64,000 nucleotides of DNA from Eledone cirrhosa (taxonomy: Eukaryota), in the NCBI GenBank assembly GCA_964016885.1, contig OZ024743.1, forward strand, positions 313,782,001 to 313,846,000, written 5' to 3'. How positions within the stretch are numbered: the stretch's first letter is position 1; each line of letters starts with the position of its first letter. The notes under the pieces are model-generated. The model was not told the origin of the DNA, made no database searches, and worked only from the letters and a program-made list of their open reading frames with translations. The position numbers and the translations under genes were made by a program. Positions 22,852 to 62,056 of this stretch are shown here, piece after piece.

Positions 22852-23313
22852 ATGTACGTATACATACTTATATTTAAGTAACAGCCGTACTAAGAGTGAG
22901 AAATGAAATTTCGTTTCATTTTTTTGTTTATCGTTCTCGGTACCCCGGCCGATTAACTCACTCGATATGCAAATTAGGCTGCTCAGCCGTTAATATGCAT
23001 AAGGAAAGTATATACTTTTAGACGTTCAACCATCTGGCAGGAAGGTATACGTTGCTGACGATAACTAATAAGCTTGAAGCTGGTACAGCGTTCCTTTGTC
23101 AGTGTTGAACAAATGAACAACGATGGTTGCTAGACACCGTACGGCTTAATTCGGGATGTTTGTTTACAAACACACCGAGTATTATAATAAATGTTCGGTG
23201 AATCCGTACGTACATATGTATATGTGTGCATGTATGTATATATATATATATATATATATGCATACTAATGTACGTCTGTATACATATATGTATGTACGTA
23301 TACATACTTATAT
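22852..23313 (+). mobile_element. ORF-less 440-bp HHR-bearing monomer with 22-bp terminal direct repeat (retrozyme-like, octamer family)
   Basis: ATGTACGTATACATACTTATAT at 22852 and 23292; homologous to the 61417-61932 unit. Confidence 0.7.
23050..23090 (+). ncRNA. Type I hammerhead ribozyme, degenerate (GAAG instead of GAAA)
   Basis: cgttg-CTGACGA-taact aata agctt-GAAG-ctgg-TA-cagcg; aligns to the perfect HHR at 61596. Confidence 0.65.
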
Positions 23314-24542
23314 ATATATATACATATATATATATATATGTATATATATATATATATATGTGTATATATAAAGTTATATCTGCATAAATACATACACACA
23401 CACTTATATATATGTGCGTGTGTGTGTATATGTATGTGTGTGCGTATGTGTATGTATGCATGTGTATATACACATATATATATATATACATATATATACA
23501 TATATATATATATATATATATATGTATGTATATATATATATATATATATATATATATGTGTATGTATATATATATGTGTATATACATATATATATATATA
23601 TATATATGTATATATATATGTATATATATATATATATATATATATTTATTAAAATAACAGATTAAAGTTTAAGCAAAGAATCGCTGCATAAATATATATA
23701 TATATATATATATATATATATACACACATATATATATATATATATATATATATATATATATATATATATATATACACACATATATATATACACACATATA
23801 TATATATATATATATACATACCCATATATGTATATATATATATATATATGTACATATATATATATATATATATATATATATATATATATATATATATATA
23901 TATATATATATATATATATATATATATATATATATATATAAATATATTTATGCGAACAAAATGTGTTCATAACTCTCATTGTATCTACATACATATACAT
24001 AGATTTAATTAATCGTGAAATCTTGATCTAATGAGAAAACAAGTTAGAACTAAAAGAAGAAAAATCGTAAAATGCAAAACATCATTTTACGATCCGAAGC
24101 ACATATTTTCACCGGAATAATTGATACATATATTACAACACTGAAGATTAATGCGCTGATATTTTGTAAATTTATTTGGAATATGTCAGTTGGGTTGTCT
24201 AAATATACTTGTGGTTATATTATATAAATATATAACCAACGTTACGGAAGGTAGATGAGAGAAAAAACGACATCTTGTTTTGGTAAAAGTGAAAATTAAT
24301 GGCGATGAATGGTTGAAAGATATTTATCAGTGAGTGGAACAAATATTGTAATTGTAATATCACTGTCTATCACTGTCCGTCCGTCTCTCTCTCTCTCTCT
24401 CTCTCTCTCTCTGTCACTCTCTCTCTCTCTCTCTCACTCTCTCTCTCTCTCTCTCTCTCTCTCTCTCTCTCTCTATATATATATATATATATATATATAT
24501 ATATATATGTTCAATTTTTTACTATATATATATATATATATA

Positions 24543-27500
24543 TAGTTAAAAATTGAACAGGAACAAAACAGAGGCAGTACGCACAAAGGTTTGTTAGTTT
24601 CACGCTCTTGAGAGTGGGATGGTGGTGGGGACCGACGTTTCGGGCATAAGCCCTTCTTCAGGTGAAAAGTGTGTGGGAAGAGAGTTCCAAGGGTGTGTTG
24701 GGGAGTGGTGGAGAGACATATAGAAAAAAAGGGGGTGAGAGGAAACGGTACAAATGAAATTAAATATAAAAGCATAATAAAAATAAAAATAAAAATGAAG
24801 TAAAACAGGAGGTGGAAGCGTGTGAGGCTGGTAAGGGTGGTGGTGGGTGGAGTGGGGAGAGGGACGGCGGGGTGTCCGAGCGGGGAGGGCTGAAGGTGGT
24901 GTGTGTGTGTAGGTGTACGTGTGTGTGTATGTGAAAGTAAGAGTTGGGGGAAGAATGGGGTTGCATGTTCAGGAGGAGGTGTGTGTGGGGTGGGGTGTAG
25001 GTCGGAGTGTGTGTGCGTGTGGCGATGGGGAGGGGTCAGAGGGGTGGGGAGAGAGGATTCCGGAGGCTGAGTGTGTAAATATGTGGTGGTACGCACGTGT
25101 GTGTGTGGTGTTTATGCGTGTTGTGAATGTAGGTGGCGTGTGGGAAACATTTTTTTTTAGTGTATGTCAGTGGGTGAGTCCATAAGGTAGTTCCATAGAG
25201 GATGTGGTGGAATGCTGGAATCCTTGGGATGTGGTGGATTCTAGGGATCGATGTTCAATATGTGTAATCCGTGGTTGGTCGGAAGAGGGGAGATGTGAGG
25301 TGCGCGCGCAACAGGAAGTGGTCAGAGTGTCAAGGCAGGAGGAGGGTTGTGTGTCTGTGTGCGCGGGGAGGTGGTCAGAGAAGGGCATAGCAGCAGTCGG
25401 GTAGAATGGTAAGTGAAGAAAGTCGGTGTGTCTATTTGTGCGGAGGTGCGGTGGACAGGGGAGAGGATGGGTAGGTGTGAAAGTTGGAGTGAGGAGGGTG
25501 TGTGTGTGTGTATTAGTAGAGGTGTTAGTGGGATGTGTGTGTGTGTGAGAAAGGGTGTCGGCGGAGCGGGGAGAGAACGGTGTGGGGGCCGGTGGAGGGA
25601 ATGTAGTGTACTGGTGTGTGTGTGCGTGTTTGGATGAGTGCGTGTATGGTGAGGTTGGGAAAGGGTAGAATGCGGGTGTGAGTGGGGGTCAGTGGTGGTA
25701 GGGTGTGTAGAGTGGGTGGTGTAAGTGGGTGTGTGTGTTCGTGTGCGTGGGGTCGGGGGTGTTAGTGATGTTAGTTGCGGGGTGGTGGGGTGGATGTGTG
25801 GGGGTGAGGGTTAGTGGTGGTAATAGGGTGTGTGTTTAGTGTGAGCGCGTGTATATATATGTACCAGTGGGTGTGTGCGTGTGATAAGGAGAGGAGGAGA
25901 AGAAGGGAGGGATGTTAGTATGTTAGTTGGGGTAGGGTTGGCGGGTGTGAATGGAGGTGTTAGTATTGTTAGTTGTGGGTTGGGCGGTGAAAAGGAGGGG
26001 TGTGTTAGTGGTGTTAGTGGGGGATATGTGTGGGGGGAGGGGGCGGTCGAAGGCTAAATGAATAAGGGTGGGGATTTCAGGCCCGGGGGGGGGTCTATAG
26101 GGTGAAGATAGTTCGTTGTTCGACCCTGAGGAGAGTGGCGGGTGTTCCGTGGCATTGGAGTAGGCCACAGACTGTGAGGTGGTGTGCGGAATGTCCAGGG
26201 GCACCTAAGTGGCGGGCGATGGGGGAACTACCACCGAGACGAATATCTCGGAGGTGTTCGGTAAACCGGTCCGTCAGGCGACGTCAAGTCTGTCCGACGT
26301 AATTTGCGCTGCACTCCGTGCAACGAAGTCCGTAGACTAGGTTGCAGGAGGTGCAGCGGAAGGCATGCCGGACAGAGAGAGAGTGGCAGTTGGGACCCTG
26401 GAAGGTGGTGGTGTTGGTGATGTGGGGACAGGTGTTGCAGCGGGGCCTGGAAAAGGGAAGGGAACCGGGGGAGAAAGAGAGCGTGGGTTAGGGGGTAGGG
26501 AGCTGTGTGCTGGAGGGTGCGGAGAATGCGTGCGCGTTTGAAGGAGGGGAGTGATGGGGCTGGGAAGATGTGGGAGGTGGAGGGTCGCACTGGAGGCGTT
26601 GGAAGAGGCGGAGGATGGTGCGGTGGAGGGGTATGGTGGAGGGTGTTAGGTGATGGGGAAGGGGAGACGGTGGGTGGGTGTGCGGTGGGGTTGGGTGAAG
26701 GTGGTGGAGCGGTGGACTGCACGGGCGCGGGTGAGAGCGGTGTGGACGAGAGCGGGGGAGTAACTTCTGCGGATGAAATGGCTGACTAGCGAAAGGGCCT
26801 GGGACTCAAAGTCAGCATCTCGGCAACAGAGGCGGCGGATCCTGAGGAGTTGGTAGTAGAGAATAGAGTGTTTAGTGTGTGTAGGGTGGGAAGAGGTGAA
26901 GTCGAGGTAGGAGTGGGAGTCGGTGGGTTTGAAGAAGGCGGAGGTGACGAGGGAGTGGTGGGAGGGACCGAAGGCGACGAAAATGTCTAAGAAGTGGACG
27001 TGGGTGGTGGAGATAGAGGTGGTGAAGTGGAGGGAGGGGTGGAAGGAGCAGAAGAAGGAGAGAAGGAGTCGAGCTGTTCTCGGGTGAGGGTCGTGGCTCC
27101 GATACAGTCGTCGATGTAACGACCGTACAATTCGGGCGTGGGGCCGGTGTACTGGGCAAAGATTCGGGCCTCAACATGGCCAACAAAAAGGTTGGCATAG
27201 TTTGGGCCCATTCTTGTACCCATGGCTTCCCCCGTGGCCTGTTGGTAAAACTCACCCGAGAAGGAGAAACAGTTGAGGGTGAGGACAAGCTCGGCGAAGC
27301 GAAGGAGGGTGGGGGTGGAGGGGATGGGGAAGAGGCGAAGGTCGAGGTAGTGCTTGAGGGCACGTAGGCCGTCGGCGTGGGGATGACGGTATAGAGGGAC
27401 TTGATATCTAGGGTGAAGAGGAAGGGCTGTAGGCCGGGAAGGTATGTGAAGGAGTCGAAAAGGCGCAGGGCGTGGTTGGTGTCGGAGATGTGGGAGGGGA

Positions 27501-61341: not shown

Positions 61342-61932
61342 AATTAAGTTAAAAGTGTACATCTACATATGTATACTGAAATACTAGTATGCATATAAAT
61401 ACACACATGTATACATGTTAGAAGCGAAACGAAATTTAATTTCGTTTCGTTATTTGTTTTTATCGTTTCCGCTGAACCGGTGCGTACAATGACTCACGTT
61501 CTATGCAAATTAGTCTGCCCACTACTAATTTTCATAGAAAAAGCATATAACGATATGTGCTTTTACGATTCTCTAGAGAAGCCGGAAGATGGGTTATATT
61601 GCTGATGAGATGTAATAACATCGAAACTAGTCCAATATTCCTGTCTGGCTCTCTGGAGAATAGAGGAAATGTGTTTCCTTGAAAACCCGTATGACTCTAA
61701 AACCCGGTTTGTCTGTTTGGTTACATACAGACTAGCTGGACATTCACAGTAAAGTGTCCAGTGAAAAACTCAGTACATATACATATGTATACATGTGTGT
61801 ATTTATATGCATACTAGTATTTCAGTATACATATGTAGATGTACACTTTTAACTTAATTGTTTAAGCGTCAGTCATACAAAAGTGAGTTAGAAGCGAAAC
61901 GAAATTTAATTTCGTTTCGTTATTTGTTTTTA
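61342..61932 (+). mobile_element. ORF-less 470-bp HHR monomer with 46-bp terminal direct repeat and ~75-bp 5' inversion (retrozyme-like, octamer family)
   Basis: 61417-61462 matches 61887-61932; 61342-61416 is the reverse complement of 61784-61859; (TA)n flanks. Confidence 0.88.
61596..61638 (+). ncRNA. Canonical type I hammerhead (GUC)
   Basis: atattg-CTGATGA-gatgt aata acatc-GAAA-ctag-TC-caatat; all stems perfect. Confidence 0.95.
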
Positions 61933-62007
61933 TATATATATGTATATATATATATATAGAATATAGATATAGATTACAATAATCAAAGTTCAGTTTAAAT
62001 CATTTAT

Positions 62008-62056
62008 TTGCTTACAATTGTTTCCTCCAAACCGAGGTTTGGGTTCTTCGGAGCAA
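62008..62056 (-). ncRNA. Type I hammerhead, CCGAAGA core
   Basis: Minus strand: ttgct-CCGAAGA-ac ccaaacc tc ggtttgg ag-GAAA-caattg-TA-agcaa. Confidence 0.85.

Follow-up and report, generated by a model that had tools for sequence, protein, structure and literature searches.

Hammerhead ribozymes in (TA)n-rich DNA of Eledone cirrhosa and the insertion ends of Penelope-like elements and putative retrozymes

A 64,000-nt stretch of the Eledone cirrhosa genome (assembly GCA_964016885.1, contig OZ024743.1, positions 313,782,001 to 313,846,000; hereafter, the window) raises the question of what fills the DNA between its (TA)n microsatellites, and how so many motifs resembling hammerhead ribozymes (HHRs) came to lie there. 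The first 22 kb hold remnants of the long interspersed nuclear element (LINE) type, and from 22.8 kb on the DNA is broken up by (TA)n runs, with elements nested inside TA runs that flank one another. A preliminary description of the stretch proposed a single ribozyme-based system of autonomous Penelope-like elements (PLEs) and non-coding dependants. Our analysis supports one PLE-driven system with such dependants, to which ~79% of the non-microsatellite DNA belongs by hand-set intervals. The region is very probably a pile-up of insertions by (TA)n-targeting PLE proteins, including non-coding units mobilized in trans, a reading that draws on the HHRs, the families that carry them, and the ends at which their insertions stop.

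The motifs were sought with a type I descriptor (C-N-GA-N-GA, stem II, GAAA, stem III or a palindrome, U-N, stem I) whose thresholds were fixed after the sites in the window had already been seen. In its relaxed form it recovered 16 of the 25 HHR motifs listed for 22.8–62.1 kb and found zero motifs in 1–22.8 kb, and dinucleotide shuffles (60 per block size) gave means of 0.033 and 0.017 motifs with a maximum of 1. A stricter earlier version found 0 motifs and an intermediate one 5, including a weak match at 18937, outside 22852–62056. The scanner is independently supported by blind samples of the genome (described below), as it made 40 matches there and 0 in 10 of 10 shuffles. The nine motifs that it missed comprise five point-mutated copies of families with intact cores, one long-stemmed motif, and three marginal minimal motifs. 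The mutated copies are 23050 (GAAG, where the rest of the family has GAAA), 29223 (core mutated to CTAATGA), 47687 and 48323 (both AAAA), and 49163 (a change in stem III); the motif at 33187 has a stem II of 81 nt, longer than the scanner allows, and other copies of its family pass; the minimal motifs 24631, 38069, and 41226 have a weak stem I. A further 3' half-motif, at 43830–43866, is indeed cut at an inversion junction, and whole copies elsewhere carry a U3-A8 core. The motif at 30322 passes the scanner, yet has a G at its cleavage position. A G at this position blocks hammerhead cutting, and the motif is therefore predicted to be inactive. Motif 50990 (family F) has five further truncated copies, absent from the earlier list, as stubs at 36258, 36438, 55473, 60339, and 61085.

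The covariation expected of real ribozymes is present in the clan formed by families A (61596) and B (23050), in which 6 of 15 stem pairs have changed on both sides and the core is fixed except at N7; the five sequences compared are related, so their shuffle control is not a probability. Compensatory changes in stem II, judged by eye, also separate family C from its sister C'. In most window motifs stem III is palindromic and stem II is mismatched at its foot, features reported for PLE HHRs that act as dimers. General databases contributed little: among the best 150 of 234 Rfam matches, nearly all motifs were missed and the sole HHR match was HH9 at 61584–61655 (32 bits; gathering threshold 52), and Pfam matched one of nine proteins, the 905-aa open reading frame (ORF). 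Minimum-energy folds of the 16 motifs recovered stem I in most and stem II in many, with z < -3 in only three, and folding energy alone is weak evidence for HHRs. Judged from sequence as a whole, the window HHR motifs are real. Further HHR families with a compensated U3-A8 core were seen at loci L072, L074, L049, and L095.

To ask which elements carry these ribozymes, the 3.0-Gb genome was searched with 14 family stretches and one extension. Each family stretch returned 461–2880 first-look candidates elsewhere, which are candidates and not copy numbers. Eight HHR families prove to be 3' ends or pseudo long terminal repeats (pLTRs) of ORF-bearing PLEs, assigned to clades on motifs and by eye: five of Hydra type (44269/47687, with stubs 48042/48323; 50990, family F; 52501, family K; 55923; and 62008, family H), two of Neptune type (59288/60147, family J, and 24631), and one Nematis-like (38069/41226). 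The motifs 50990, 52501, 60147, and 62008 had been taken as anonymous; they are PLE 3' ends, whose ORF lies upstream in other copies or just beyond the window edge. In the Hydra families, by the motif definitions of PMC8557442, the endonuclease (EN) is C-terminal, CxCx5C and CxxC were found by pattern, YRDD is present, and the translations read by eye have CxH and no CCHH; the Hydra copies of the window are 5'-truncated, DKT is present in the related loci L071 and L080, and RWK was not seen. The Neptune families (J and 24545–28960) have a C-terminal GIY-YIG domain with CCHH and a CX2-5CxxC linker. A Naiad or Chlamys identity for the AT-rich ORFs was ruled out, as the EN is C-terminal to the reverse transcriptase (RT) in all window ORFs.

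Seven further families are non-coding tandem units of 320–575 nt in five clans, with one type I HHR per unit (A 471, B 433, C 555, C' ~510–527, D 575, E 453, and N 320 nt). A and B align end to end, and C and C' are sisters; families G (33187) and I (29517) were counted apart from both classes. Hence the 14 families described as unrelated were overstated, since 61596 and 23050, like 49163 and 54925, belong to sister families and eight are PLE 3' ends. In units A, B, C, C', D, and E (N lay outside the scan) the longest ORF starting with methionine is 27–74 aa and the GC content 34–38%, and the circular folds of these six beat shuffles at z of -2.3 to -11.7, values that the token shuffle may inflate. 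The non-coding units are dispersed over many contigs with many young copies: family B has 2181 first-look candidates at 95–97% identity, and family A has 809, with full-length matches mostly 97–99% identical. The five sequencing runs listed for family A are of DNA or unspecified type, with no RNA run among them. By hand-set intervals, 22,852–62,200 consists of ORF-bearing PLEs (49%), stubs (~7%), non-coding units (~13%), microsatellite (14%), and a remainder (18%), so the non-coding dependants are not the bulk of this DNA.

The insertion ends connect the two classes. Non-coding insertions contain one to five head-to-tail units with variable 5' ends, often an inverted arm, and two fixed 3' ends that abut (TA)n. 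With window copies and overlapping loci excluded, 15 of 17 two-armed loci have one arm per fixed end (A 5/5, out of 12 A loci; C 5/6; D 5/6), and the window's own A and C insertions obey the same rule. Measured from the ribozyme cut site, the two ends lie at 228/299 nt in A, 54/171 in C, 61/223 in G, and 15/90 in I, and at 25/119 nt in F, 41/210 in H, 120/185 in J, and 36/110 in K, which serve as autonomous controls. In both classes the ends are 55–170 nt apart and 15–300 nt downstream of the cut site, and reverse transcription would therefore start inside the RNA; insertion from cleaved ends does not appear to occur. Short TA/AT matches, noted by eye after many ends, may assist priming at (TA)n. 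In vitro, the RT was found to start at a pair of internal sites in a Poseidon PLE, where these yield a genomic "tail" unique to PLEs and cleavage is dispensable (Frangieh 2024, PMC11167929), and almost all Hydra families combine insertion into (TA)n with HHRs (PMC8557442).

We propose a mechanism in which the GIY-YIG domain of a PLE would nick (TA)n and the RT would start at two sites inside the RNA, each start serving one strand of the target. The two cDNAs would usually halt early and join into HHR-bearing stubs, which would keep the HHR because it lies 15–300 nt from the start sites. The non-coding units would be retrozymes that borrow PLE proteins in trans, and we lean towards Hydra-clade PLEs, the commonest here, as their main partner. 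Their template would be a multi-unit RNA, either a read-through transcript or a circle, made from tandem copies with internal promoters (U6-like in clan A/B). HHR cleavage, probably as dimers because stem III is palindromic, may yield monomers and circles. Each insertion would add a TA target, so that families nest.

Several observations weigh against this reading. The loci used for end mapping were the best-scoring matches and not a random draw, and the clade calls come from motifs and comparison by eye. Both arms of the 44269 element end at the same site, and the tails of 55–170 nt exceed the published 30–40 nt. Furthermore, when the non-coding units were compared with 11 autonomous or class-pending 3' ends, no homology was found beyond low-complexity tracts and one 28-nt HHR match, in contrast to Xenopus, where known repeats, almost exclusively PLEs, were matched by 24 of 57 retrozyme families. 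Only one of nine Xenopus retrozyme dimers cleaved in vitro.

The elements of the window are as follows; where no strand is given, none is assigned.

22852–23284, plus strand: family B, one non-coding ~433-nt tandem unit (retrozyme); U6-like box at 22966; the HHR core of this copy (23055) carries a mutation
24545–28960, minus strand: decayed GC-rich Neptune-type PLE (RT, CxxC linker, GIY-YIG with CCHH); marginal minimal HHR at 24661 near the 3' end
29160–29585: family I, two-armed inverted insertion; HHRs at 29223 (minus, mutated) and 29523 (plus)
29891–30481, plus strand: family E, 1.3 copies of the non-coding 453-nt unit; HHR at 30327 with G at the cleavage position
32007–32863, plus strand: family D, 1.5 copies of the non-coding ~575-nt unit; HHR at 32484
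33105–33517: family G, two-armed insertion; HHR at 33196 (plus) with 81-nt stem II
37910–41328, minus strand: Nematis-like PLE with a long open RT and GIY-YIG frame and direct pLTRs, one minimal HHR per pLTR (38069, 41226); clade by eye against the Craig 2021 supplement
43670–43985: family N, non-coding ~320-nt unit in two arms; the inversion junction cuts through the HHR, which in whole copies has a U3-A8 core
44233–47792, plus strand: decayed, 5'-truncated Hydra-clade PLE with an inverted 5' arm (HHR 44331, minus) and a 3' end (HHR 47695, plus)
47880–48430: two tandem copies of a short two-armed stub, 44269-related subfamily; HHRs at 48050 and 48331
48465–50415: family C, two-armed insertion of the non-coding ~555-nt tandem unit; HHRs at 48732 (minus), 49168, 49720, and 50273
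50885–51160, minus strand: family F, 3' end of a Hydra PLE; HHR at 51035 with CAGAAGA core
51168–52596, plus strand: family K, 3' untranslated region (UTR) of a Hydra PLE, ending in the HHR at 52507
52830–54778, plus strand: Hydra ORF of the K family, 5' part inverted, 3' end joined to family C'
54779–55056, plus strand: family C', part of a non-coding ~510–527-nt unit, sister of C; HHR at 54930
55883–58876, minus strand: Hydra PLE with a 473-aa open RT-EN frame and a 1.5-kb 3' UTR; HHR at 55980 at the 3' end
59126–60302: family J, Neptune PLE 3' end in two arms, with the final EN codons in the middle; HHRs at 59321 (minus) and 60152 (plus)
61343–61935: family A, non-coding 471-nt unit with a short inverted arm; U6-like box at 61502, HHR at 61602
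61965–64000, minus strand: family H, Hydra PLE represented by its 3' UTR and HHR (62051); the ORF lies just beyond the right window edge

Two entries correct alternatives that were tried and rejected. The 281-bp tandem at 48042/48323 is a stub with two arms and not, as was considered, a retrozyme that arose from a Hydra pLTR; its apparently new part is the inverted tail. The motif at 54925 is not the pLTR of the preceding ORF, as its other copies are non-coding tandem units. At 54651–55056 the Hydra ORF and the start of its 3' UTR are fused directly to the C' retrozyme piece, a junction that may reflect template switching, with one autonomous and one non-coding RNA involved. A template switch is likewise possible at 50620–50800, where a segment putatively similar to a short interspersed nuclear element (SINE) runs straight into the tail of the 44269-related PLE family.

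Other features stand on their own. Copies of family G (33105–33517; L112, L117, L140–L142) frequently have their inversion point precisely at the 5' arm of HHR stem I, so that the junctions are near-perfect palindromes, and some F and I copies also end at or within the HHR; other copies of family I have >700 nt of non-coding upstream sequence. The Nematis-like element appears young, with an uninterrupted 905-codon PLE frame (38512–41229, minus strand) and pLTRs that are 99% identical. The 3' UTR of the family H element contains an 850-bp (AATAAA)n tract (62197–63050) that is far shorter in some copies. Outside the window, an 11-unit array of 310-nt HHR repeats (L081:200–3400) has a 90-nt block in common with family N and a different HHR that resembles that of family I, possibly through module swapping. 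In the left part of the window, 223–21018 holds nested AP-endonuclease LINE remnants, some with gag-like zinc-knuckle ORFs, and RTE-like RT fragments.

The proposed template requires a promoter within the unit, and a candidate is present in clan A/B. About 100 nt before the HHR, both A and B retain TATGCAAATTAG with a TATA-like box after it. In the same genome, the genes for U6 (three loci), U6atac, and RNase MRP share this box, ATG(C/G)(A/T)AAT, at -76 to -78, and it is absent at U1, U2, and RNase P. Against a U6-type promoter are the spacing from box to TATA (41–42 nt in A/B, compared with 46–48 in 5/5 host genes) and the frequency of the bare octamer, with 32 occurrences in the 290-kb sample. 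Downstream of the predicted start, the first run of at least four T in B is a T6, and A has a single T4 before a T5; those runs are at the far 3' end. Read-through would be needed because whole units, including the promoter, are copied. A working U6-type promoter in A/B is thus plausible, with the balance tipped slightly towards doubt. A U1/U2-type promoter in A/B is ruled out by sequence. The U6-like box was not found in C, C', E, G, I, or K, and D and J have partial matches only. The host genes themselves fall into two promoter classes: U6, U6atac, and MRP have ATG(C/G)(A/T)AAT at about -77 and TATA at -30 (L025–L027, L157, L231), and U1 and U2 have AATCAGT at about -55 and a TATA-like box at -35 (L127–L129, L163–L173, L232). 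The RNase P RNA gene has the U1/U2-type box, which suggests that it is transcribed by RNA polymerase II (Pol II). A tandem U6 array is interrupted in two of its copies (L031 and L036), where a SINE-like element with a short duplication is inserted between the TATA box and the gene.

Within the mechanism proposed above, the template is best read as multi-unit, and its shape is the first point on which a rival deserves serious weight. Non-coding units may insert through rolling-circle reverse transcription of HHR-made circular RNAs, monomeric or dimeric, and not from linear read-through transcripts, which we rate as a real contender that falls somewhat short of an even chance. In its favor, units of family A differ by 1.1% within one insertion and by 2.0% between insertions; the four units of L001 are 0–1 nt apart, those of L002 are identical, and L006 and L016 read ABABA and ABAB. 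The circular folds are stable, and a circular-RNA model has been proposed (PMC4209133, PMC7229834). However, L004 and L015 have unequal units that are all different, as expected of a multi-unit transcript or of age, and ABAB can also arise by DNA duplication, with L012 holding the same AB pair twice, 5 kb apart. In the one PLE studied in vitro, moreover, the main substrate was uncleaved RNA (PMC11167929).

A second question is whether the ribozymes cut at all. They could be largely inert passengers that cut themselves little in vivo and are kept because they fold or bind proteins. No pile-up of 5' ends at the cut site was found overall (11 of 163 truncations against 6.6 expected), with only family A nominally enriched (P = 0.017, uncorrected); minimal PLE HHRs are published as cleaving poorly, and insertion of the PAc element proceeds without cleavage (PMC11167929). 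On the other side, all 48 sequence clusters keep the core nucleotides, as the scan by its construction requires; several families have the compensated U3-A8 core; and covariation of the stems is seen when sister families are compared. We therefore regard inertness as doubtful.

A third reading, in which the non-coding units spread as DNA, either as satellites or as non-autonomous DNA transposons, is very unlikely. Long arrays do exist (11 units in L081 and 10 in L153), and the 281-bp stub is tandemly duplicated in the window. However, the units occur as dispersed copies of one to five with variable 5' ends and inversion points and fixed 3' ends, just as in the adjacent ORF-bearing PLEs, and spread at the DNA level is disfavored because this two-end pattern is common to both classes. 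Least of all is the window likely to be a special ribozyme locus as opposed to an ordinary TA-rich patch: it holds 4.1 motifs per 10 kb compared with 1.4 in blind samples, but single 10-kb stretches of the blind sample hold as many as 4, 10, and 14 motifs, compared with 6 in the best window bin, and all 14 searched family stretches have hundreds to thousands of candidates elsewhere.

The blind sample comprised 29 stretches of 10 kb at round coordinates, 25 of them from contigs C1–C4 (289.8 kb in all). It contained 40 strict motifs, 21 of which lie in two long arrays, and 11 of the 29 stretches were positive. The bootstrap mean is 1.38 motifs per 10 kb (0.41–2.62), or 0.72 (0.34–1.17) with arrays counted once, which extrapolates from 290 kb to ~1–8 x 10^5 motifs in 3 Gb, probably hundreds of thousands. 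Clustering at 80% gave 48 HHR types in ~1 Mb of retrieved, biased sequence and 16 types in the blind sample, where Hydra ORF remnants occur in 7 of 29 stretches. No significant correlation was found between HHR count and TA runs over the 29 samples (rho = 0.28, P = 0.13). High density is a genome-wide property and not a local one, the window being ~threefold above the genome mean. The claim that such density and diversity are undescribed stands in part. Diversity of this kind is in print, with many HHR families per genome in coral, Schistosoma, and Xenopus (PMC7229834, PMC4209133), whereas such abundance was not found in the literature. Published counts, obtained with descriptors that differ from ours, are >6000 in 16 families in coral (PMC7229834), ~5000 in mussel, 126,247 in the 28-Gb axolotl genome, and ~9000 in Xenopus.

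An improbable but attractive composite would go further: several hundred thousand motifs in dozens of families, with young retrozymes that captured a U6-type RNA polymerase III (Pol III) promoter, are cut and circularized by their ribozymes, and are copied round the circle by Hydra-clade proteins at two (TA)n sites, would form the largest HHR system reported. If this were true, a complete retrozyme life cycle would be readable from the genome and could be reconstituted in vitro. More broadly, our results suggest a PLE origin for much of the unannotated sequence that separates TA microsatellites in this lineage, and they suggest that Hydra elements, a clade little studied so far, can reach great abundance. 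Here, seven retrozyme families show PLE-specific two-site ends beside autonomous controls. The mapping of the start sites is accurate to a few bases, with unit positions of about 445 and 47 in A and 228 and 350 in C, and the families reach 97–99% identity, so a trans-priming assay would be direct, and the value of the finding is that it makes the PLE-retrozyme link directly testable.

The closest known systems are the animal non-LTR retrozymes (PMC7229834; Li, Clavereau & Pollet 2026, bioRxiv 10.64898/2026.07.22.740005), which likewise consist of tandem non-coding units, each holding a single type I HHR, with low GC content and a self-paired circular fold, and which occur as several families per genome alongside co-resident PLEs. 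The unit length here (320–575 nt) compares with 150–450 in PMC7229834 and 51–972 in Li 2026. The units described here differ in being mostly short dispersed (TA)n insertions with PLE two-site ends and inverted arms. They also lack pLTR homology among the 11 ends compared, a feature that is found in part of the Xenopus families and is not universal, and they are known from DNA sequence, whereas retrozyme circles are established in coral, mussel, and axolotl. Published work favors PLEs as the movers of retrozymes on the grounds of co-occurrence, tandem form, and partial pLTR homology, with little direct evidence on the life cycle. In the literature searched, which lay outside subscription papers, only Craig et al. 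2021 (PMC8557442) was clearly relevant among prior cephalopod HHR or retrozyme reports, and no description of PLE-type ends on retrozymes was found.

The Hydra-clade PLEs of that study, including Hydra-1_Obim of Octopus bimaculoides, agree with ours in their C-terminal EN, CxCx5C linker, (TA)n target, and HHR near the 3' end, and one RT here closely resembles Hydra-1_Obim by eye. PMC8557442 lists one molluscan Hydra family, compared with five in this one window; additionally, some elements here exceed 3 kb owing to their UTRs and have tails of 74–170 nt. The Neptune, Nematis, and Poseidon PLEs (PMC4209133, PMC11167929) have pLTR HHRs with a palindromic stem III and an unpaired base at the foot of stem II, the U3-A8 variant (reported in Schistosoma PLEs), opposite-strand pairs 100–700 bp apart, and two RT start sites, all as seen here, where stem II reaches 81 nt in some families, tails are longer, and motif density is far higher. 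Newt satellite 2 and Schistosoma SM-alpha (PMC6765202, PMC2220036) also consist of tandem HHR repeats with an internal promoter per unit, such that one unit drives the next. The newt promoter is of the Pol II small nuclear RNA type and that of Schistosoma a SINE-like Pol III promoter, whereas clan A/B has a candidate resembling the upstream U6 kind (type 3), with a spacing that is altered. The component parts, namely HHRs in pLTRs, retrozymes, TA targeting, and many families per genome, are already known, and the proposed PLE link is also in print; the variant aspects of the system described here are two-site PLE ends with long tails on retrozymes, a high abundance led by Hydra elements, and a possible U6-type promoter.

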